DNA of 24,000 bases from Acidobacteriota bacterium (lineage in GTDB: Bacteria > Actinomycetota > Acidimicrobiia > Spongiisociales > UBA5794). Numbering within the stretch: the first letter of the stretch is position 1; each line of letters begins with the position of its first letter. The notes below the pieces were generated by a model, which saw only the letters and a list, made by a program, of their open reading frames with translations, made no database searches and was not told the DNA's origin. Positions 374 to 23,868 of the stretch are shown in pieces. The translations under genes and the position numbers were made by a program. The DNA lies in assembly GCA_022566415.1 (NCBI GenBank), contig JADFIY010000003.1, positions 14,470-38,469 of the forward strand, in the 5' to 3' direction.

Positions 374-480
374 GGGGACATCCTAGTTCTGGGGGGGCTC
401 GGCGGTGCCGAGGCGGGCCAGCGCTCTGGAACGGGGTTGCGGCAGCGGGCCTGCTCGCGTTGCGGTGACGATACCTCGTC

Positions 481-569
481 AAGAGCGCGGCGGGCCGCTC
501 GGGCCACGGCTCCGCGAATGGCCTTCGCCGACAGCGACCGGATCGTGCCCTATTTGCGGAGCCTCTAAG
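481..569 (+). repeat. Copy 1 (short form) of the ~92-nt structured intergenic repeat
   Basis: AAGAGCGCG + GGGCCGCTCGGGCCACGGCTCCGCGAATGGCC..GCCGACAGCGACCGGATCGTGCCCTATTTGCGGAGCCTCTAAG is near-identical to 2451-2619. An internal 12-bp dyad pairs GGCTCCGCGAAT (508-519) with ATTTGCGGAGCC (552-563). Confidence 0.85.
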
Positions 570-2367
570 CCGATGTGATCAGCTGCTTCGCCGACAGCTC
601 GGTGTAGAGGCCACCGGCCGCAACGAGATCGTCGTGCGTCCCCTCCTCCGCGATCGATCCCGCGGCGAGCACAACGATACGATCGGCGGCACGAACCGTG
701 CTCAACCGGTGCGCGATCACGATCGTGGTCCGATCCCGCATGAGCCGCTCCAGGGCGTCTTGCACCAGTGCCTCGGACTCCGCGTCCAGAGAGCTCGTCG
801 CCTCGTCCAGGATGAGGATGCGCGGATCGGCGAGCACGGCTCTTGCGATGGCGAGGCGTTGTCGCTGCCCGCCCGACAGCTGCACGCCCCGCTCCCCAAC
901 CACCGTGTCGTATCCGTCCGGAAAGGCGACGATGAAGTCATGTGCGTTCGCGGTCCTTGCCGCGGTGACCAGATCGCCGTCGGGGGCTCCCGGTCGGCCG
1001 ACTTGGAGGTTCTCTGCGATGGTTCCGGAGAACAGCAGCACCTCCTGGGGAACGGCGGCCATCTCGCTTCGCAAGGCGCCAAGGGCTTGCACGCGAACAT
1101 CGATGCCGTCGACAAGAACCTCTCCGGAGGACACGTCGTAAAAGCGTGGGATCAACTGTGTGAGCGTCGACTTTCCTGCTCCCGACGGCCCGACCAGGGC
1201 GACGGTCTCCCCGGGCGCGATGACGAGGTCGACGGCGGAGAGCACCTCGATGTCGCGGCCCGGGTAAGAGAACGACACCCGATCGAACAGCACCGAGCCC
1301 TCGCGGACGGCGGGAGCCACGGGCGCCGCCTGCCGTGGCACTTCGATCGGCTCGTCGAGCAGCTCGAATATCCGCAGCGACGCTCCGAGGGCCTCCTGAA
1401 GCTCGGAGTACAGGCCGGTGAAGGTGCCGATCGCTCCGGCAACGATCAGCGTATAGAGCAAGAACGACACGAGTTCACCAGGGGACAGGTCACCGTTGAC
1501 CACGAGCCGTCCTCCAACCCACAGCACCACTGCCAGCGTTCCGAACGCGATGAAGGTGACGAACGGCACGAAGAGGGCCCGCAGCCGCGCCCGGCGCAAC
1601 GCGACCGCGTACGAGCTGAGTATCGCGCCGTCGTATCGCGAAACGACGTCGTCCTCTGCCGTGAACCACTTTATGACGCGGATCGATGCGATCGACTCGT
1701 CGGCCAGGGCGTTGGCCTCGGCGATCTCGTCCTGAAACGAGGTGGAGATACGCCGTATGCGCCGACCAAAAACCGCGGCAGCGACAATCACCGCGGGAAG
1801 GAACGCAAGCACGGCGAGCGAGAGCACCGGGCTGATCACCACGAGCAGGATCACACCACCGACGAGGGTGATCCCCTGGGACAGGGCCTGTGCGGAAGAC
1901 GACGACACCGTGCTTTGTACGACGACCGCGTCCGAGGTGAGCCGGGAGGTGATCTCCCCGGTGCGGCGACCATCGAAGAATGGAACGGGGAGACGAACGA
2001 TCCGGTCGTAGACGGACCGGCGCAGATCGGCCACGACACCCTCGCCGACAACGGCCAGCGCATAGATGCGCACGTAGTTGAAGACACCCTGGATGAGGAA
2101 GACGGTGAGCAGCACCAACGCGATCCGATCGAGCGTGCCCGTGCTGCCGTCCTCGGCGAGTGCGCTATCGACCAGGCCACCCATGATCCGTGGGAAGACC
2201 AGGCCGAGGGATGCCGAAACGACAACACCAACGACGGCGACGGCCAGCCATCGTCGGTACGGCCTCAGGAGGGCGAATAGGTTGGTCAGCTGGGTCAGCT
2301 GGTCATGTCGCGAAAGGTCGGAGCGAGAATCAGGCTTGGCAAGGCGGGATGCTCGCATGGGACGCAT
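565..2367 (-). CDS. ABC transporter, fused permease/ATP-binding exporter (MsbA/ABCB-like)
   Basis: 600-aa ORF with a hydrophobic multi-TM N-terminal half. Walker A GPSGAGKST, signature LSGGQRQR, Walker B ILILDEATS, H-loop IAHRLST. ATG at 2367; alternative ATG at 2358. Confidence 0.95.
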   Translation of the reverse strand: MRPMRASRLAKPDSRSDLSRHDQLTQLTNLFALLRPYRRWLAVAVVGVVVSASLGLVFPRIMGGLVDSALAEDGSTGTLDRIALVLLTVFLIQGVFNYVRIYALAVVGEGVVADLRRSVYDRIVRLPVPFFDGRRTGEITSRLTSDAVVVQSTVSSSSAQALSQGITLVGGVILLVVISPVLSLAVLAFLPAVIVAAAVFGRRIRRISTSFQDEIAEANALADESIASIRVIKWFTAEDDVVSRYDGAILSSYAVALRRARLRALFVPFVTFIAFGTLAVVLWVGGRLVVNGDLSPGELVSFLLYTLIVAGAIGTFTGLYSELQEALGASLRIFELLDEPIEVPRQAAPVAPAVREGSVLFDRVSFSYPGRDIEVLSAVDLVIAPGETVALVGPSGAGKSTLTQLIPRFYDVSSGEVLVDGIDVRVQALGALRSEMAAVPQEVLLFSGTIAENLQVGRPGAPDGDLVTAARTANAHDFIVAFPDGYDTVVGERGVQLSGGQRQRLAIARAVLADPRILILDEATSSLDAESEALVQDALERLMRDRTTIVIAHRLSTVRAADRIVVLAAGSIAEEGTHDDLVAAGGLYTELSAKQLITSA

Positions 2368-2376
2368 GAGCGGATG

Positions 2377-2619
2377 TTAAGAGCGCGCACCGATAGATGA
2401 CGGGCGGTCTCGACAGAAGCGGAGCCATTTTTCCCGCTCTTGGCTTCGGGCCGCTCGGGCCACGGCTCCGCGAATGGCCGTGCCGACAGCGACCGGATCG
2501 TGCCCTATTTGCGGAGCGCCATTTTCCCGCTCTTGGCTACGGGCCACATCGGGCCACGGCTCCGCGAATGGCCGTGCCGACAGCGACCGGATCGTGCCCT
2601 ATTTGCGGAGCCTCTAAGG
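2377..2619 (+). repeat. Long form of the structured repeat: outer terminus plus two tandem units of 92 and 94 nt. It is the left inverted arm of the cassette.
   Basis: GCGGAGC recurs at 2419, 2511 and 2605. The units share CATTTTCCCGCTCTTGGCT.CGGGCC....CGGGCCACGGCTCCGCGAATGGCCGTGCCGACAGCGACCGGATCGTGCCCTATTTGCGGAGC. Positions 2377-2530 match the reverse complement of 3991-4146. Confidence 0.9.
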
Positions 2620-2716
2620 AGATATATCGGGATCGATGGCGGCGCCAGCGGCTTCTCTGGCAGCTGTCTTCCGTCCACGCCGGTCCCGGTGCGTACCATG
2701 CGCGCCGGAGGTAGCG

Positions 2717-3211
2717 ATGGACGCTGCGGCGGTGAACCGGGTGATGTGGGCGATCCCCAACGTGCTGTGCCTCGTCGGGTCGCGTGCCGGTGACGAGCGC
2801 AACGGGATGACCACTTCGTGGGTCACCCAGGTGGCGATGGAGCCGGTCCTGGTCGCCATTTCGGTGGATTCGACGGCGGTGACCAACCGGCTCATCCGCG
2901 ACGGAGGGTCGTTCAGTGTCAACTTGTGGGATCGCGAGGACACCAAGGTGTTCCGGCGCTTCTCCAAGCCGGCGGAGGATGACGGCGCTGCGCTCAACGG
3001 CTATTCGGTCAGGAACGGAGTCACTGGTGTCCCGATCTTCGACGACGCCATCGCCTGGTTCGAGTGCGCGGTCCGTGACACGATCGACGTTGGTACCCAC
3101 GATCTCTTCCTCGGCGAGGTCATCGACGTCGGGATCCGAGACGGAGCCGAGGAGCAAGTTGCCAGGATGGAAGACACGCGGATGAAGTACGGCGGCGTTC
3201 GCCGTCATTGA
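2717..3211 (+). CDS. Flavin reductase-like (FMN-binding split-barrel) domain protein
   Basis: The track ORF is 2636..3211. I moved the start to ATG 2717, which has GGAGG at 2707-2711 and a 5-nt spacer. The motif region NGMTTSWVTQVAMEPVLVAISV and the ~165-aa size are typical of the HpaC/NtaB-type flavin reductase family. Confidence 0.85.
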   Translation: MDAAAVNRVMWAIPNVLCLVGSRAGDERNGMTTSWVTQVAMEPVLVAISVDSTAVTNRLIRDGGSFSVNLWDREDTKVFRRFSKPAEDDGAALNGYSVRNGVTGVPIFDDAIAWFECAVRDTIDVGTHDLFLGEVIDVGIRDGAEEQVARMEDTRMKYGGVRRH

Positions 3212-3221
3212 GGGGGTTGCC

Positions 3222-3989
3222 ATGGAGATCCGCTTCGATGGGATTGTCGCGCTCGTCACCGGAGGAACGCGCGGTATCGGAGAGGCCACCGCCAAGGAGT
3301 TCCTTTCCTCCGGTGCGGCAGGGGTTGCGATCACGTCTCGCCGTCAGGAGAACCTGGATGCCGTGGCGGAGAGGCTCGATGCCGGTAACCGACTGATGTT
3401 GCTCGAGGCCAGGGCGGACGACGACGCCGCCGCCGCAGCCGCGGTCGGAGCGGTCGTCGCCCAGTTCGGTCGTCTCGATGTGCTTGTCAACAACGCGGGC
3501 ACCAATCCGGCGGTGGGCGCTATCGCCGACGTCGATCTTGGCGCGCTGGACAAGACCTGGGCGGTAAACCAGCGGGGGCCGCTGGTCTGGTCGCGCGAGG
3601 CGTGGAACCAGACGATGAAGGCCGAGGGCGGCTCGATCGTCAACGTGGCCTCGGTGGGTGGGATTCGCCCGGGGATGGCGCTCGGTGCCTACAACGTGTC
3701 GAAGGCGGCGCTGATCTACCTGACCAAGCAAATGGCCTACGAGATGGCCCCCGGCGTGCGGGTGAACGCAGTGGCGCCGTCGGTCGTTCGCACCCGGCTG
3801 TCGGCAATGTTGTGGGAGGGTCTCGAGGATCACACCGCGGCAGCCCACCCCCTGAAGCGGATCGGGGAGCCAGAGGATGTGGCCCGCGCCATCGCCTTTC
3901 TCGCCTCGGATGCCGCGTCGTGGATCACGGGAGTGATCCTTCCCGTCGACGGGGGAGCGTTGGGGGCGACCGCAGCGGCCGGGATGTGA
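3222..3989 (+). CDS. Short-chain dehydrogenase/reductase (SDR) family oxidoreductase
   Basis: 255 aa. Cofactor motif TGGTRGIGEA, NNAG, catalytic YNVSKAAL (YxxxK). GAGGGGG lies upstream of the ATG, which is 10 nt after the flavin reductase stop. Confidence 0.92.
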   Translation: MEIRFDGIVALVTGGTRGIGEATAKEFLSSGAAGVAITSRRQENLDAVAERLDAGNRLMLLEARADDDAAAAAAVGAVVAQFGRLDVLVNNAGTNPAVGAIADVDLGALDKTWAVNQRGPLVWSREAWNQTMKAEGGSIVNVASVGGIRPGMALGAYNVSKAALIYLTKQMAYEMAPGVRVNAVAPSVVRTRLSAMLWEGLEDHTAAAHPLKRIGEPEDVARAIAFLASDAASWITGVILPVDGGALGATAAAGM

Positions 3990-3990
3990 C

Positions 3991-4146
3991 GCGGGAAAAT
4001 GGCGCTCCGCGAATAGGGCGCGATCCGGTCCTTGGTTGGTAAGGCGATTTGCGGAGCCGTGGCCCGAGCGGCCCGTAGCCGAGAGCGGGGAAAGAGGCTT
4101 AACTTCCGTCGAGACCGCCGGTCACCTATCGGTGCGCGCTCCTTAG
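3991..4146 (-). repeat. Inverted copy of the structured repeat (right arm of the cassette)
   Basis: The reverse complement of 3991-4146 aligns end to end with 2377-2530, about 85% identity by eye with two small indels. It begins 1 nt after the SDR stop and ends 7 nt before the stop of the convergent 4154..5353 gene. Confidence 0.9.
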
Positions 4147-4153
4147 ATGACCT

Positions 4154-5353
4154 TCATGGGAAAGGGTCGTAGCCGGGCATGCCAGCTTCGATCCAGGCCT
4201 CGAAGGCCGCCGTGCTACCCATGTCGTGGCCGCTCTCTGCCGACTCCCGGTAGCGATAGTTGAGGAAGTCGCAATAACCCTGTATCGGTTCGAAGCCGGG
4301 GCGAAGCTCAGCGATCCGGCTGGCGAAGGGCTCGAACCGTGTGGCACGCCACTGCATCGTTGTGACTGCCTTGGAGGTGGGTGACCCGGATCCTCCGTGT
4401 TTTGCCTCGTGGTAGGAGAGGTCGGCCAGAATCTGCCTGGCTTGGTTCTCCGATGCGTCGATGCCGGTGAGCTCTCTGAGCCGGGTCGAGTGATACGTGC
4501 GGCCCCCGACCTGAACCGTGATGCGAATCCGGCTGGACCCTCCATCCGGGGCGACGTCGATTTCGTCCACGGCGAAGCCGAGATCGTTGAGGCGTTCGAT
4601 GCGGCTGCGGATGAGGTACCGCTCGTCGGGGCCGATCAGCAGGTCGCTGTTCAGCTCGTCCCAAAGAGCGTTATACCGTTTGGTGATATCGGTACCGATG
4701 TCGAGGTCGGCCTCGTCGAGATCTTTGCCCGAGGCCGCCGCGATGTCCGCCATCCCGCCGGCGAGGTTCTCGCGCATGATCTCTAGGTCTTCGAATCGAC
4801 GCCCGTCGCTGATCATTTCATACAGGGTGGAGGTCTCGGCATCGACCATGACGGTCTCGATAGCGCCGGCGTCATAGCGATAGAGGACGTTGGACAGCGA
4901 GCAGTCACCCCAGAAGCAACCGGCAAGGTGCAGCTCGACGAGTAGGCCGGCGAAGGCATCGAGCATCTGGTTCCTTCTCGGGCCGAATCCGCTGCCGGAG
5001 ACGAGCTCGCGATATGGGAAGGCATAATCGACGTATCGAGTGATTACTGCCCCAGCGCCCTCTTCTTGCGGGTCGAGCCAGGGTCGCAGCACTAGACCCG
5101 CCGGCGATGCGCTCCGCTTGGTTCTCGTCTCCAAGGTACGGAGGGTCTGGTACTCGTGGTCGGCGAGCTCGGCGGCGAGCTCCTTGATCGCATAGATGCC
5201 TTCGTCGTATGCGACGAACACCACGGGGTGTCTGTGAATCCCCGTTGGCATATCGACGGTGCGATCCTCTTCCCATTCCAAAACCGGTCGCTCCCAGGGA
5301 AGGTCGAGAAAGTCCGGCCCGCCCGGCCGGATATGAAGCTTCGGTATCGGCAT
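4154..5353 (-). CDS. Kinase-fold (Kdo/RIO-like) protein with a DUF4032-like C-terminal region
   Basis: 399-aa ORF. FWGDCSLSNVLY resembles a kinase catalytic loop (hGDxxxxN) and MVDAETS resembles a DFG-like metal site. I recall the overall layout from actinobacterial DUF4032 proteins. This is a family call from memory, not a search. Confidence 0.6.
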   Translation of the reverse strand: MPIPKLHIRPGGPDFLDLPWERPVLEWEEDRTVDMPTGIHRHPVVFVAYDEGIYAIKELAAELADHEYQTLRTLETRTKRSASPAGLVLRPWLDPQEEGAGAVITRYVDYAFPYRELVSGSGFGPRRNQMLDAFAGLLVELHLAGCFWGDCSLSNVLYRYDAGAIETVMVDAETSTLYEMISDGRRFEDLEIMRENLAGGMADIAAASGKDLDEADLDIGTDITKRYNALWDELNSDLLIGPDERYLIRSRIERLNDLGFAVDEIDVAPDGGSSRIRITVQVGGRTYHSTRLRELTGIDASENQARQILADLSYHEAKHGGSGSPTSKAVTTMQWRATRFEPFASRIAELRPGFEPIQGYCDFLNYRYRESAESGHDMGSTAAFEAWIEAGMPGYDPFP

Positions 5354-10381: not shown

Positions 10382-10423
10382 GAGTCGTAAGTCGCAAGTC
10401 GCAAGTCGCAAGTCGCAGGTCCC
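10382..10423. repeat. Heptanucleotide tandem array (AAGTCGC)n
   Basis: GAGTCGT AAGTCGC AAGTCGC AAGTCGC AAGTCGC AGGTCCC: four perfect units flanked by degenerate ones. Confidence 0.95.
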
Positions 10424-10444
10424 GATTTCGAGTTGGCAGCGACC

Positions 10445-10472
10445 GGGAACTGGGATCTGGGATCTGGGAACA
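10445..10472. repeat. Heptanucleotide tandem array (GGGAWCT)n
   Basis: GGGAACT GGGATCT GGGATCT GGGAACA; ends 16 nt before ATG 10489. Confidence 0.95.
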
Positions 10473-12416: not shown

Positions 12417-12451
12417 TCTCGACTCTCGACTTTCGACTCTCGACTCTCCTC
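12417..12451. repeat. Heptanucleotide tandem array (TCTCGAC)n, which reads (GTCGAGA)n on the minus strand
   Basis: TCTCGAC TCTCGAC TTTCGAC TCTCGAC TCTCCTC. The last unit overlaps the stop codon (12450-12452) of the BtpA-family gene. Confidence 0.95.
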
Positions 12452-19556: not shown

Positions 19557-19761
19557 GGAGACGCCAGGTCGTTATCGGTATCCGCGACAGAGGCAAGCAC
19601 GTCTCTGGAGGGTCGATCGATCATGATTTTCGCCCGAACCGTGCACTCGCCGAAGGCCATCATCGCTCCAGCCTCGCCAAATCATCTCCGAGACTACGCC
19701 CAGAAGCCGTCGCCCATACCTGCCTGATGGGAGGAGTCGGATACCACCCTGTGCGTCGGGA

Positions 19762-20532: not shown

Positions 20533-20616
20533 TGCGCTGCGACTTTAGGGTCGTAACCCAAGCCAGCAACATGCTGCGTCATAGCCGTGCGCGTTGAAGT
20601 GCGTAGACCCATGGGT

Positions 20617-20651
20617 TCGTAATACGTTGTACGTGATACGGAATACGGCCC
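20617..20651. repeat. Degenerate heptanucleotide array (ACGNNAT)n
   Basis: TCGTAAT ACGTTGT ACGTGAT ACGGAAT ACGGCCC; ends 16 nt before the arfB ATG. Related to the ACGTATT array at 23803. Confidence 0.7.
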
Positions 20652-20667
20652 TGCATACTGTTGGCTC

Positions 20668-21084
20668 ATGGACGACCTGCGCGTCTCGGACGAGGTCACG
20701 ATTCCCGCCGCCGAACTGGAATGGACGTTTCTTCCCAGCGGAGGGCCGGGCGGGCAGCATGCGAATCGGGCGTCTACCAAGGTCGTGCTGCGCTTCGATG
20801 CCGCGGCCTCCGCTGCCTTCGACGAGGCGACCCGCCGGCTTGTGATCGACCGGTTGCCGGAGCCCGTGGTCGCGGTCACCGTCGACGAGACGCGGTCGCA
20901 GTGGAGGAATCGACGGATCGCCAGACAACGGCTCCGCGAGCGGCTTATTGCCCTGCTGGCGCCAGATCCCCCGCAGCGCAAACAGACGCGCCCGAGCCGG
21001 TCGGCGAAGCAACGGAGGCTCGACACCAAACGAGCGCGTTCTCAGCAGAAGTCGCTCCGCAGACCGCCCGCCGTAGAAGACTGA
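20668..21084 (+). CDS. arfB: Alternative ribosome-rescue factor ArfB (YaeJ-type peptidyl-tRNA hydrolase)
   Basis: 138 aa. GGQ motif in SGGPGGQHANRASTKV, and a basic C-terminal tail (KQTRPSRSAKQRRLDTKRARSQQKSLRR). Confidence 0.92.
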   Translation: MDDLRVSDEVTIPAAELEWTFLPSGGPGGQHANRASTKVVLRFDAAASAAFDEATRRLVIDRLPEPVVAVTVDETRSQWRNRRIARQRLRERLIALLAPDPPQRKQTRPSRSAKQRRLDTKRARSQQKSLRRPPAVED

Positions 21085-21087
21085 GCG

Positions 21088-21732
21088 ATGTCGATCATCC
21101 CGTTCTACGGCGTCGATCGTCCCGATCTGTTCGCCATCGAGCGCGCGGCAATGGACCGGCCGGGCCGCGTCATCGAGCGGCTCGACCGGTTGCTCCCCGC
21201 GGGGACGATCGCCGACATCGGGGCAGGCGACGGCTTCACTGCCGAGCGGCTCGCCAACCCGCAGCGCAGGATCGTCGCCGTTGAGCCCGCCAGGGCCATG
21301 ATCGACCGCAGCCGCCACCGGACCTGGGTACAGGCCGATGCCGAGGCGCTTCCGTTTGGTAATGGTTCCCTCGACGCTGCATACGCCACCTGGGCATACT
21401 TCTTCTCGCGAGGGCCGCTCGATCCCACTCCCGGCCTCGAGGAACTCCACCGCACGGTGAAGCCGGGTGGCACCATTGTCATCGCCGACAACGCCGGGGA
21501 CGACGAGTTCTGTGCGTTTTCGCAGCACGACATCTCGGCAGATCCCAGGTTTTGGCGAGGGCGCGGTTTCGGCATCGAGATCGTCGACACCGTATTTGCC
21601 TTCGAGACCGCAGCGGACGCCTGGCGGCTGCTCGATTTCTATTTCGATGGGATCGGGTCGGCGCCACCGACGCAGCTCACCTATCGGGTTGCTCTTTTCA
21701 TCGGGGTGAGCCAGGGCCCCCCGCGCTACTGA
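21088..21732 (+). CDS. Class I SAM-dependent methyltransferase
   Basis: 214 aa. Motif I IADIGAGDGFTAERLA and a post-I acidic residue (VAVEP); VKPGGTIVIAD. The ATG lies 3 nt after the arfB stop. Confidence 0.85.
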   Translation: MSIIPFYGVDRPDLFAIERAAMDRPGRVIERLDRLLPAGTIADIGAGDGFTAERLANPQRRIVAVEPARAMIDRSRHRTWVQADAEALPFGNGSLDAAYATWAYFFSRGPLDPTPGLEELHRTVKPGGTIVIADNAGDDEFCAFSQHDISADPRFWRGRGFGIEIVDTVFAFETAADAWRLLDFYFDGIGSAPPTQLTYRVALFIGVSQGPPRY

Positions 21733-21759
21733 GCGACCGACCTCCCTAACATCGCGGCC

Positions 21760-23010
21760 ATGCATTACGACTTCACCACGCTTCCCAATGGCCTGCGCAT
21801 CATCTCTCAAGACATGCCGGCGCTTCGATCGCTTGCCGTCGGCGTGTGGGTCGACACCGGCAGCCGCGACGAAACACCGGTCGAAGCGGGAGCCAGCCAC
21901 TTCCTCGAGCACCTCTTGTTCAAAGGATCAGAAGAGTGGCCGGCGGAGCGCATCAGCGAAACCTTCGATGCCATGGGGGCACGCCATAATGCCTTCACCT
22001 CCAAGGAATACACCGCCTACTGGGCCCGGATGCGGGATGTCGACCTACCCACCGGCATGGAGATCCTCGCCGAGATGGTACAGAAGCCGGCCTTCCGCCA
22101 AGAGGAGATCGATCTCGAGCGTGGCGTCGTGCTCGAAGAGATCAACATGAACGAGGACGATCCCCCCGACGTGGCGCACGAGCAGTTCGTTGAGACTTTG
22201 TGGGGATCGCACCCGTTGGCGCCGCCCATTCTCGGGACAAAGGATTCCATAACCGAGATGACCCGCGACACCGTGAGTGGGTACTGGGCGAGGCGCTACA
22301 CGCCGCGCTCGTGCGTGATTGCTGTCACCGGGCGCGTCGACCATGACGACCTGGTGGCCCTCGTCGAGAAGCATTGGAGTACGTGGGAGGGAGAAGCGAT
22401 CGACCGACCGCTCAGCACGCCGGACTACGAGTCGGGCGTCGGTGTGGTGCGGCGCGACACCGAACAGGCACACCTGGTGTTTGGCGGTCCCGGCCTCAAG
22501 CGCGACGACGAGCGGCGATTCGCTCTCATCGTCGCCGACCATGTCCTTGGCGGAGGGATGTCGAGCCGTCTGTTTCGAGAGATCCGCGAAAATCGCGGCC
22601 TCGCCTATGCGGTTCACTCATTCCGGAGCCCATTTGCCGACAGCGGATCCAATGCGGTGTACGTCGGCACGACGCCGGATCAGACCGCCGAAGTGCTGAA
22701 ACTCGTGCGCGGAGAGCTCGACAAAATGATGGACAGCGGCATCACCGAGGATGAGCTGGCGCGGGCGCGGGGAAACGTGCAGGGGTCGCTTGCAATCTCT
22801 CTCGAAGATGCAGATAGCCGGATGAACCGGCTCGGTCGCAACGAGATCACCGGTCTCGAGCATCTCTCCGTCGACGAGATCGTCGCCAGGGTCGATGCGG
22901 TCACCCTCGATGATGTGGTCGAGGCGGCCGGTGCTGCGTACGGAGGACCGTATGTGCTCGGCGCCACCGGTCCGTTCGATGTCGAGGATCTCAACGAGTT
23001 CGTCCAGTGA
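21760..23010 (+). CDS. M16 (pitrilysin) family zinc metallopeptidase
   Basis: 416 aa. Inverted zinc motif HFLEHLLFKG (HxxEH). The N-terminal TLPNGLRII is typical of the family. Confidence 0.92.
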   Translation: MHYDFTTLPNGLRIISQDMPALRSLAVGVWVDTGSRDETPVEAGASHFLEHLLFKGSEEWPAERISETFDAMGARHNAFTSKEYTAYWARMRDVDLPTGMEILAEMVQKPAFRQEEIDLERGVVLEEINMNEDDPPDVAHEQFVETLWGSHPLAPPILGTKDSITEMTRDTVSGYWARRYTPRSCVIAVTGRVDHDDLVALVEKHWSTWEGEAIDRPLSTPDYESGVGVVRRDTEQAHLVFGGPGLKRDDERRFALIVADHVLGGGMSSRLFREIRENRGLAYAVHSFRSPFADSGSNAVYVGTTPDQTAEVLKLVRGELDKMMDSGITEDELARARGNVQGSLAISLEDADSRMNRLGRNEITGLEHLSVDEIVARVDAVTLDDVVEAAGAAYGGPYVLGATGPFDVEDLNEFVQ

Positions 23011-23774
23011 TCGTAGGGGTCTCTGGCGCCGCCGGACGGATGGGCACCCTGGTCGCCGAGACCATCGAGGCAACCGACGACCTCGACCTTGGTCCGCTGT
23101 TCGACCCGAAGCATGCGGGCTCCACAATCGCCGGCGCCACCGTCGAGGGATCGCGACAGATCATGGCCGATGCCGATGTTGTCGTCGAGTTCACCTTGCC
23201 CGACGTCGTCGTAGGCAATCTCGACGTCTGGCAGAGACTTGGGTTGCACTGCGTGGTCGGTACCTCGGGGTTCGATGCCGACCGGATCGCCCAGGTGACC
23301 GAGCGATGGGGAAGCGGGCCTCCGAACTGCCTCATCGTTCCCAACTTCTCCATCGGGGCAGTGGTGACCATGCAACTTGCCGAGATCGCCGCCCCGCACT
23401 TTGCCGCAGCGGAGGTGATCGAGCTGCATCACGATCGCAAGGCCGACGCACCGTCCGGAACGGCCATCGCAACCGCCGAACGCATTGCAGCGGCGGCCAC
23501 ACAGCACCGACACACGGATTCAGCTGAACTCGTCGCCGGAGCCCGGGGGGCCGATGTCTCCGGGGTGCCGGTCCACGCGATTCGGCTGCCCGGTATCGTC
23601 GCCGACCAGATCGTCATTCTCGGAGGGACCGGCGAAACGATCACCATCCGGCACACCACCACCGACCGCACCGCGTTCATCCCCGGCGTTCTTGCCGCGA
23701 TACGCGGCGTCGCCGGACTCGAAAACCCCGTCACCGTCGGTCTAGAGGCGGTGCTGGAGAAACGTATTACGTAG
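23007..23774 (+). CDS. dapB: 4-hydroxy-tetrahydrodipicolinate reductase
   Basis: 255 aa. N-terminal GVSGAAGRMG dinucleotide fold and ELHHDRKADAPSGTA signature. The GTG start overlaps the M16 stop (GTGA at 23007-23010). Confidence 0.93.
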   Translation: MIVGVSGAAGRMGTLVAETIEATDDLDLGPLFDPKHAGSTIAGATVEGSRQIMADADVVVEFTLPDVVVGNLDVWQRLGLHCVVGTSGFDADRIAQVTERWGSGPPNCLIVPNFSIGAVVTMQLAEIAAPHFAAAEVIELHHDRKADAPSGTAIATAERIAAAATQHRHTDSAELVAGARGADVSGVPVHAIRLPGIVADQIVILGGTGETITIRHTTTDRTAFIPGVLAAIRGVAGLENPVTVGLEAVLEKRIT

Positions 23775-23794
23775 TTACGTACGAACTGGGGACT
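23762..23794. repeat. Short bipartite heptamer module (ACGTATT-type units + GGGGACT)
   Basis: ACGTATT ACGTAGT t ACGTACG AAC T GGGGACT. The first two units encode the last dapB codons and the stop (TAG 23772-23774). Confidence 0.8.
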
Positions 23795-23802
23795 CGGAGA
23801 GA

Positions 23803-23862
23803 ACGTATTACGTATTACGTATTACGTATTACGTACGAACCGGGAACTGGGAACTGGGAACT
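23803..23862. repeat. Expanded bipartite heptamer module (ACGTATT)4-ACGTACG-AACC-(GGGAACT)3
   Basis: ACGTATT x4 (23803-23830), ACGTACG (23831-23837), GGGAACT x3 (23842-23862). It ends 6 nt before the stop of the convergent gene. Confidence 0.95.
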
Positions 23863-23868
23863 GGCTGC

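Follow-up and report, generated by a model that had tools for sequence, protein, structure and literature searches.

BOX of Streptococcus pneumoniae (boxA-boxB(n)-boxC) is a small modular intergenic repeat, regarded as MITE-like and predicted to fold tightly, that is mobilised in trans, if at all (PMC3049150). The repeat family described here, which was found in a stretch of 24,000 nucleotides (the window) and in related sequences, resembles BOX in that its 5' module and 3' end are fixed, with tandem internal modules between them that vary in number among strains; tight folding is likewise predicted for it. This comparison concerns architecture alone; the organisms are a G+C-rich actinobacterium and a firmicute, and no sequence relationship is expected. 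While boxB is approx. 45 nt long, the internal unit here measures approx. 94-101 nt and carries its own 12-bp hairpin. Moreover, the 3' terminus lies within the last unit rather than in a separate boxC, and some copies contain microsatellite modules.

With bacterial MITEs (e.g., Correia, RUP, Nezha) the family shares a length below 500 bp, the lack of coding capacity, a high copy number and presence/absence polymorphism, as well as imperfectly inverted ends, a putative short duplication and preference for a short palindromic target (CTNAG). It differs from them in its weak terminal repeat, in a duplication of 1-3 nt or none, and in that no matching parent IS was found. It may be a derivative of the IS5 family (IS1031/IS427 group). 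Elements of the IS1031 group are reported from Actinobacteria and reported to insert at a site of 3 nt (PMC2516522).

The family is also like the MIRUs in being actinobacterial and intergenic, in forming tandem, strain-variable arrays and in touching the stop codons of flanking genes. MIRUs are 40-100-nt units that vary in copy number between strains and often touch stop or start codons; they are described as containing short ORFs that are translationally coupled to their neighbours, and as being oriented with the operon. Conversely, the units studied here are 94 or 101 nt long (not multiples of 3), lie in sense and antisense about equally often (8 vs. 9), and belong to an element with a distinct head and defined termini. 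A hairpin-centred structure and an intergenic location, often just past stop codons, are further shared with REP/BIME, REPINs (mobilised by RAYT transposases) and PATEs (IS200/IS605). These duplicate their target hardly or not at all, which would agree with the ambiguity of the junctions reported below. REPs, however, are palindromes of 20-40 nt in which a 5' tetranucleotide is conserved, whereas the element here is at least 147 nt long and has a non-palindromic head, and no Y1 transposase gene was seen. Overall, the family is an undescribed one of a known kind, i.e., a MITE with BOX-like modular architecture, and it is confined to a single genus-level lineage of uncultured Acidimicrobiia from marine (deep-sea) sediment.

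Arms of the inverted repeat and a third copy in the window

A preliminary description had reported a flavin reductase and SDR gene pair between two inverted repeat arms and had considered that the arms mobilised or captured the pair, that the segment is prone to inversion, or that two REP-like elements coincidentally occupy neighbouring intergenic regions. The inverted repeat itself (2374-2530 against 3991-4148) was borne out, with approx. 85% identity between the arms. A repeat search of the window resolved it into two inverted pairs, i.e., 2374-2487/4035-4148 (114 nt, 83% complementary) and 2491-2530/3991-4030 (40 nt, 95% complementary), and in BLAST on the window the reverse-complemented right arm matched 2381-2530 (86% over 151 nt); the longest exact stretch shared by the arms is 25 bp. 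A core 19-mer and a 27-mer occur four times each in the window, as compared to 0.07 and 0.00 occurrences expected from shuffling. The outer ends had been given correctly, as had the position of the right arm, which begins 1 nt past the SDR stop codon, and Pfam confirmed both that the arms enclose two genes (Flavin_Reduct, 2717-3211; SDR, 3222-3989) and that the window carries no transposase or recombinase. The left arm, however, had been drawn too short, as it reaches 2615 with a second tandem 94-nt unit (TRF: 2424-2611, period 94, 2.0 copies), and a third copy, at 482-566, had been overlooked beside the two arms. The features are:

482..566, forward strand: site A element, an internally deleted copy (the third in the window) that separates the Usp gene from the ABC exporter gene
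2380..2615, forward strand: site B element (left arm), a 47-nt head and two tandem 94-nt hairpin units (head 2380-2423, unit 1 2424-2517, unit 2 2518-2611, terminal CTCT 2612-2615)
2464..2517, forward strand: core hairpin of a unit, GGCTCCGCGAAT...ATTTGCGGAGC(C), from strand folding
2717..3989, forward strand: flavin reductase and SDR genes, ancestral here and outside the repeat element (Pfam; synteny)
3991..4142, reverse strand: site C element (right arm), a head followed by one complete hairpin unit and by 13 nt from the start of another
19651..19657, forward strand: unoccupied target site CGAAGGC, empty in the window and occupied in the related-species contig L040

The core hairpin recurs at 2558-2611, 508-563 and 4004-4058, the last of these on the minus strand. 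At site A, the 5' terminus AGAGCGCG runs directly into the last hairpin unit, which is followed by the CTCT terminus; AAG stands on both flanks (481-483 and 567-569), and the last two bases of the element form part of the TAG stop codon of the ABC exporter gene (565-567, minus strand). This site also shows structural alleles, i.e., two units with microsatellite modules in the strain-level contig L003, and a head, microsatellites and two units in the sister species (contig L121). AAG likewise flanks the site B element on both sides (2379-2381, overlapping the first bases of the element, and 2616-2618). The number of units at site B differs among strain-level contigs (one in L003, two in the window and L005, three in L006; L001, L002 and L004 have scaffold gaps here), and the element is absent from the orthologous site in L121. 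The site C element, which is truncated 1 nt past the SDR stop codon, occupies the space that separates the SDR stop codon (3987-3989) from the convergent one of DUF4032 (4154-4156). It is 100% identical in five of the contigs L001-L006 and 99.4% identical in L006; in a contig of the sister species (L045) the same head lies in the same place, with microsatellite modules within the element, and in L046 the head has been lost.

Enclosed genes and history of the two insertions

The arms are very probably two independently inserted, oppositely oriented copies of a non-autonomous, MITE-like interspersed repeat family specific to this lineage, and the gene pair between them is an old resident operon rather than a captured cassette. 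A composite, MITE-flanked cassette, in which inverted copies captured the flavin reductase and SDR genes and delivered both as a unit, would account for the presence of exactly two genes within the arms and for the same ATG outside both ends, yet we consider it scarcely credible. The synteny comparison proposed in the preliminary description showed the pair conserved in place in relatives that lack the repeats: in contigs L047, L048 and L049, flavin reductase-SDR adjoin DUF4032 in the same orientation with no repeat, and the gap between the convergent SDR and DUF4032 stop codons is short (5 nt in L047, 14 nt in L049). Flavin reductase and SDR protein identities to these relatives (77-82%) are comparable to those of the neighbouring Lhr (81-83%) and DUF4032 (74%) proteins, which indicates vertical descent. 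The copy-number comparison, likewise proposed there, showed the repeat at many unrelated intergenic sites and in both orientations. As the repeat is dispersed and the genes stand in place without it, the cassette reading is refuted, and the coincidental placement of two repeats, the last of the three possibilities, is supported.

The arms also differ in history. In the sister species (L121), the ABC exporter gene already adjoins the flavin reductase upstream region and the site B element is absent; the sister species lacks the left arm and has the right arm in an identical gene order, so that the arms were inserted at different times, which contradicts joint mobilisation. Each arm has, moreover, its own junction motif, and identity between them is only approx. 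85%. The ATG trinucleotides, which had been taken as weak evidence for a target-site duplication, cannot serve as such, as the left ATG is already part of the unoccupied orthologous site in the sister species. The site C insertion is the older one, as the sister species shares the right arm, and the site B insertion is the younger one, given that the sister species lacks it and that strains of the species differ in its unit number. That the operon lies between two arms is due only to an insertion having occurred in the intergenic region on each side of it.

Homologous recombination could flip the two-gene operon as a switch, for which inverted repeats of approx. 155 bp that are 85% identical might serve as substrate; we regard such an invertible segment as highly improbable. 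A perfect match of 25 bp is near the lower limit for RecA-dependent recombination, and a single orientation was found in seven assemblies (the window and six independent assemblies from different samples) as well as in the repeat-free relatives. Inversion would also take the operon away from its upstream region without giving it another obvious promoter, and Pfam found no invertase in the window. With two independently inserted repeats as the preferred reading, a false lead is removed, as there is neither a mobile flavin reductase/SDR cassette nor evidence of a switch; repeats of this kind can mimic cassette boundaries in sequence scans.

The ABC exporter gene (565-2367), which is flanked by the direct copies A and B and is not at the corresponding position in L047, was considered separately as a gene moved by the repeats. 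This was rejected, as far as the evidence goes, as L121 has the ABC exporter gene beside the flavin reductase upstream region without element B.

Composition, abundance and placement of the family

The family consensus, built from 44 copies, is 147 nt long and contains no conserved ORF. A full element consists, from 5' to 3', of the head AGAGCGCGCACCGATAGGTGACCGGTCGTCTCGACAGAAGTGGAGCC and an approx. 94-101-nt hairpin unit ending in ...GCGGAGCCTCT. The consensus stem is a perfect 12 bp (GGCTCCGCAAAT/ATTTGCGGAGCC). Some blocks are far better conserved than the remainder, TCGGGCCACGGCTCC being near-invariant across the 44 copies.

A 21-mer scan of genome contigs found 38 loci, nearly all in two related MAGs, and a scan of metagenomes with a 20-mer from the head found 67 loci. 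BLAST with the consensus then identified three arrays in the window and 141 arrays in 105 further loci from the related MAGs and metagenomes (52 arrays within 223 kb from the two MAGs, and a further 89 within the 418 kb that the metagenome loci span). Most arrays measure 140-350 nt and the longest reach approx. 480 nt. Arrays contain one to four units, a provisional count as all data are short-read metagenome assemblies, which may collapse or break tandem repeats, and in some copies heptamer or octamer microsatellite blocks lie between the head and the units. Unit number shifts between strains, presumably via slippage or unequal recombination. Scans of viral contigs with two motifs gave no match. 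An abundant, modular interspersed repeat family is documented here in a poorly known, uncultured actinobacterial lineage.

Genes around the elements were called with a crude, home-made tool. On this basis, 45 of the 57 elements overlap no called ORF, orientation relative to the neighbouring genes is even (tandem sense, 8; antisense, 9; convergent, 8; divergent, 7), and 12 of 39 neighbouring stop codons are located within 2 nt of an element end. The junction consensus is strong and reads CTNAG|AGCGC...CTCT|WRG. The family offers a system in which insertion beside stop codons and the growth of modular repeats can be studied in organisms other than the usual models; it leaves current concepts unchanged.

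It is conceivable that the units are not selfish DNA but a selected functional motif, i.e., that they act in cis at the RNA or DNA level, as mRNA stabilisers or attenuators or as sites bound by a host protein, and are kept at gene ends for this reason. The uneven conservation, with some near-invariant blocks, the many copies that touch stop codons and the pairing of 91% of the stem cells across the 44 copies (explicit pair counting) would agree with such a role. We nevertheless judge it improbable, as the elements show no orientation bias relative to flanking genes, and as presence/absence and unit number differ among close relatives. Pair counting in the 44 copies detected no significant covariation (RNAalifold covariation term, +0.12), and since the stems are conserved without significant covariation, we make no claim of a selected RNA structure. 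With Rfam, the window had no match at gathering thresholds, nor did 380-4200 at E<=1. Scans for promoters and terminators were negative inside the elements, the hairpins having neither a terminator-like T tract nor a promoter-like site. Secondary co-option of mobile repeats has been described for BOX, ERIC and Correia elements (PMC3049150). The features listed in favour of a functional motif would equally suit later co-option of a mobile element.

Insertion sites, element ends and mobilisation

Three pairs of orthologous occupied and empty sites show clean presence/absence with a putative duplication of 1-3 nt, in agreement with a mobile repeat. The first is the CGAAGGC site listed above: in L040, a contig of one of the two related MAGs that retains the synteny of the window at approx. 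90% protein identity, a 141-nt element is inserted exactly at the site that corresponds to position 19653, with AAG on both sides. L019 and L115 provide the second pair, and the third is site B, which is occupied in the window and L003 and empty in L121. At the three empty sites, duplications of 1 nt (A), 2 nt or 3 nt (AAG), or no duplication, all fit, with one exception per model. Between the 5' and 3' flanks of the same element, agreement at positions -3/+1 and -2/+2 exceeds that under permutation (z=3.0 and 2.6), and by hand count identical trinucleotides stand on both flanks in only 9 of 57 elements.

The two ends share AGAG/CTCT, ATAGG and CCGGTC blocks, which are similarly spaced from each terminus. 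Local alignment of the first 60 nt with the reverse-complemented last 60 nt gave a terminal inverted repeat that is weak (score 24, as compared to 15.8 +/- 3.2 with a maximum of 30 in 1000 shuffles). From these ends, we infer that a transposase supplied in trans would recognise imperfectly inverted termini (AGAG...CTCT, ATAGG, CCGGTC), and that insertion would create a very short duplication of 1-3 nt. Termini of GAG...CTC with a TNA duplication, as in IS1031-like elements, were also considered; this model was dropped as the empty sites assign the T after CTC to the element.

Neither the window (Pfam) nor 0.84 Mb of related loci yielded an autonomous partner. In the 0.84 Mb of related DNA, no head and tail pair surrounds a transposase-sized ORF, and all-against-all megablast of the related DNA revealed no IS-like repeated segment above 500 bp. 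Head and tail motifs 650-3500 nt apart yielded two candidates, both of which were rejected: in L110, a small gene lies between two distinct elements, and the L018 match arose by chance within an AMP-dependent synthetase gene. A solo head in L016, examined for a link to a transposase, is followed by ordinary sequence without a transposase gene.

Given the weak terminal repeat and the ambiguous duplication, mobilisation may have involved a single-strand (IS200/IS605-type) or other non-DDE mechanism. Taken further, the family could be an undescribed modular mobile element, composed of a head, a variable number of hairpin units and, in some copies, microsatellite blocks of heptamers or octamers, that homes to stop-codon-containing CTNAG sites, sometimes supplying the stop itself, and is moved by a non-DDE enzyme, e.g., a single-strand Y1/HUH enzyme or another site-directed recombinase. 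With such an enzyme, it would be understandable that the ends are weakly inverted, that a duplication is nearly absent and that no partner was found; on balance, we find this reading rather unlikely. Through co-option, modular elements of this kind might have acquired a role in shaping the 3' ends of mRNAs.

Whichever enzyme moved these MITE-like repeats, their variable-number loci could serve for strain typing. The repeats also break short-read assemblies, many copies being located at contig ends or scaffold gaps, and in sister MAGs the repeat-adjacent genes sit on 2-kb contigs.

The inverted arms and their modules

A repeat search of the window recovered the inverted repeat claimed in the preliminary description as two paired segments, i.e., 2374-2487 with 4035-4148 (114 nt, 83% complementary) and 2491-2530 with 3991-4030 (40 nt, 95%), and BLAST of the reverse-complemented right arm against the window gave 86% identity over 151 nt at 2381-2530. 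A conserved core 19-mer and 27-mer each occur four times in the window (0.07 and 0.00 occurrences, respectively, expected from shuffles). The two enclosed genes were as described, and, as also stated earlier, no transposase or recombinase gene is encoded in the whole window. While the inverted repeat itself stood, a second unit in the left arm, a partial second unit in the right arm and a third copy had been missed. The parts lie as follows:

482-566, same orientation as the left arm: site A element, third copy with an internal deletion, between the Usp and ABC exporter genes
2380-2423: 47-nt head of the site B element (left arm)
2424-2517 and 2518-2611: two tandem 94-nt units of site B (TRF period 94, 2.0 copies)
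2612-2615: CTCT terminus of site B
2717-3211: Flavin_Reduct protein ORF, enclosed by the arms
3222-3989: SDR ORF, enclosed by the arms
3991-4142, minus strand: site C element (right arm), a head and one unit followed by 13 nt of another

At least 22 public contigs carry the gene for this SDR protein; six were retrieved (L001-L006, ~99% identical to the window, NCBI MAG GCA_022563365.1 among them). Their gene order is that of the window; their repeats differ. Site B has one unit in L003, two in the window and L005 and three in L006, and is broken by a 100-N scaffold gap in L001, L002 and L004. Site A has one unit or, in L003, two units preceded by short tandem repeats, and site C is constant. 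These differences in unit number therefore indicate that the arms are variable-number arrays, with the proviso that tandem unit counts by short-read assemblers can be wrong. Inversion of the bracketed segment, previously offered as an option, was seen in no assembly, all being in one orientation, and the arms match exactly over at most 25 bp.

A dispersed repeat family

When 185,579 species-representative genomes were scanned for an exact 21-mer, 38 loci turned up, and two MAGs, CAXMPL01 and JACZST01, account for 36; a 20-mer taken from the head matched 67 metagenome loci, and viral contigs gave zero matches to the two motifs. Consensus BLAST yielded 52 arrays in these genome loci and 89 in the metagenome loci. 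Most arrays are 140-150 nt long (one unit), with other classes near 240 and 340 nt, and many lie at contig ends. The 147-nt family consensus, AGCGCGCACCGATAGGTGACCGGTCGTCTCGACAGAAGTGGAGCCATTTTCCCGCTCTTGCCGCTTCGCGGCGGGCCGCTCGGGCCACGGCTCCGCAAATGGCCTCGCCGACAGAGACCGGATCGCGCCCTATTTGCGGAGCCTCT, derives from an alignment (A2) of 44 single-unit copies, in which mean column identity is 83% and blocks such as TCGGGCCACGGCTCC are nearly invariant. In some copies, on contigs of the sister species and of other strains, octamer or heptamer microsatellite modules, (CAGTAGAT)n, GTGTCTGCCTTC and (GCTACTG..)n, separate head and hairpin units, so that modules of at least three kinds occur in the family:

L045:2455-2595, L046:1860-1990 and L121:1893-2214 (sister-species contigs): copies with octamer/heptamer arrays
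L003:7200-7260 (another assembly of the window locus): copy with such an array

L040, a contig of CAXMPL01, shares synteny with window 11.8-19.6 kb at ~90% protein identity, so the two MAGs are closely related to the window's organism. Their NCBI labels ("uncultured Kiloniellales" and "Acidobacteria bacterium"; L007-L044) clash with this, and both the gene content of the window and the source names of its protein homologues point to Acidimicrobiia or Actinomycetota; the labels look wrong, or the bins mixed.

The family appears undescribed (a literature search found no paper joining Acidimicrobiia with MITEs), and it belongs to an already known kind of element. Its closest architectural analogue is the pneumococcal BOX element, with fixed ends, tandem internal modules of variable number and strain variation (PMC3049150). 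MIRUs share an actinobacterial host and variable tandem arrays but, unlike this family, are coupled to ORFs. In behaviour the family matches bacterial MITEs, but its ends are only weakly inverted (alignment score 24 versus 15.8 +/- 3.2 in shuffles), where textbook MITEs have clear terminal inverted repeats, and its duplication, 1-3 nt at most, may lack the fixed length usual for them. No parent insertion sequence was found in the window and related loci; the IS1031 group of the IS5 family, which has a 3-nt target and occurs in Actinobacteria (PMC2516522), is a lead only. Movement by a single-strand IS200/IS605- or RAYT-type mechanism is a possible alternative.

History of the locus and insertion sites

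In relatives at 74% DUF4032 identity (L047, L048 and L049), Lhr, a 134-aa gene and DUF4032 converge on SDR and flavin reductase, with stop codons 5 nt apart in L047 and 14 nt in L049 and no repeat. At the protein level, identities for SDR (77-79%) and flavin reductase (81-82%) resemble those for Lhr (81-83%) and DUF4032 (74%). The two genes therefore occupy an ancestral position. Site C is occupied in the sister species (L045 has the same head and junction with other internal modules; L046 has lost the head), while site B is empty, yet the ABC gene is already next to the region upstream of flavin reductase. Insertion of the two arms thus took place at different times, and their 85% identity fits this too. 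Thus, the reading of the arms as bracketing a cassette was wrong, and the fallback of coincidental REP- or MITE-like elements was right.

The consensus junction of 57 complete, non-redundant elements reads C-T-N-A-G|AGCGC on the 5' side and CTCT|W-R-G-G on the 3' side. Within one element, flank positions -3/+1 and -2/+2 match in excess of the permuted values (27 versus 17.9, z=3.0, and 32 versus 24.6, z=2.6). Identical flanking trinucleotides were present in only 9/57 elements (manual count). Three orthologous occupied/empty pairs show that insertion is precise:

Pair 1: occupied L040, CCCAAG[AGCGC...CCTCT]AAGGCC; empty window 19651-19657, CGAAGGCC
Pair 2: occupied L019, CTCGAG[AGCGC...CCTCT]AAGGGC; empty L115, CTCGAAGGC
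Pair 3 (site B): occupied window/L003, ATGTTAAG[AGCGC...CCTCT]A(A/C)GGAGATATATC; empty sister species L121 (GCA_030624105.1, ABC protein 94% identical), ATGTTACGGAGATATATC

The T of CTCT is element sequence, not flank, and any duplication would span no more than 1-3 nt (A or AAG). The ATG outside the left end, formerly taken as weak evidence of a duplication, was already part of the empty site.

Elements often lie side by side (...CTCT-NAG-AGCGC...; L044:780-1190, L054:9031-9330, L096:4249-4560, L023:5630-5920), and the single element of L080 corresponds to a pair in L054 and L096. Either an existing junction recreates the preferred CTNAG-like target, or unequal recombination makes tandems.

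In samples ERZ27250328 and ERZ27250394 (L047/L048, L118/L119), Usp comes immediately after the DUF4032-SDR-flavin reductase block, the ABC gene being missing; an 86%-identical ABC exporter follows dnaN-recF-gyrB-gyrA on a separate contig. If both contigs represent one organism, the exporter lies at a different chromosomal position in that lineage. The window's exporter (565-2367) has the direct copies A and B on its two sides, but copy B is younger than the gene arrangement there.

Hairpins, genomic context and other repeats

Folding gave every unit a strong hairpin with a 12-bp stem (GGCTCCGCRAAT/ATTYGCGGAGCC) and a partly paired interior. Across aligned copies, stems are well kept (91% of cells paired) and covariation in them is not above controls. 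As Rfam gave zero family matches even at E<=1 and neither a terminator-like T tract nor a sigma-70-like promoter was found inside elements, we treat these as selfish or neutral DNA. A secondary influence on mRNA ends, which has been suggested for BOX, ERIC and Correia elements (PMC3049150), is possible.

By a crude ORF caller, which makes the context figures approximate, 45/57 elements overlap zero called genes, and no orientation class is favoured (tandem sense 8, antisense 9, convergent 8, divergent 7). Of 39 stop codons next to elements, 12 are no more than 2 nt from an element end, while gene starts are always at least 7 nt away. In the ABC exporter TAG stop (565-567, minus strand), one base comes from the flank and the other two are the final bases of element A; when element A and one AAG are conceptually deleted, TGA is read at the same codon position, so the insertion kept the protein length. 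The preferred target thus contains stop codons.

Sister MAG contigs L121, L045 and L046 are 2.2-2.6 kb long and carry the ABC exporter gene alone or DUF4032 with partial neighbours. As L121 and L045 end within these repeats, the family is a cause of assembly fragmentation there.

The window also has intergenic heptamer microsatellites (10383-10469, 12417-12448, 20618-20647 and 23762-23864), with motifs (AAGTCGC)n, (GGGATCT/GGGAACT)n, (TCTCGAC)n, (CGTAATA)n, (ACGTATT)n and (GGGAACT)n, the last also present in a related genome (L115); the microsatellites are similar to the STRR heptamer repeats of cyanobacteria. Two of the arrays (20615-20647 and 23804-23836) are mutually inverted and bracket four genes (20668-23774), which could pass for another bracketed cassette.
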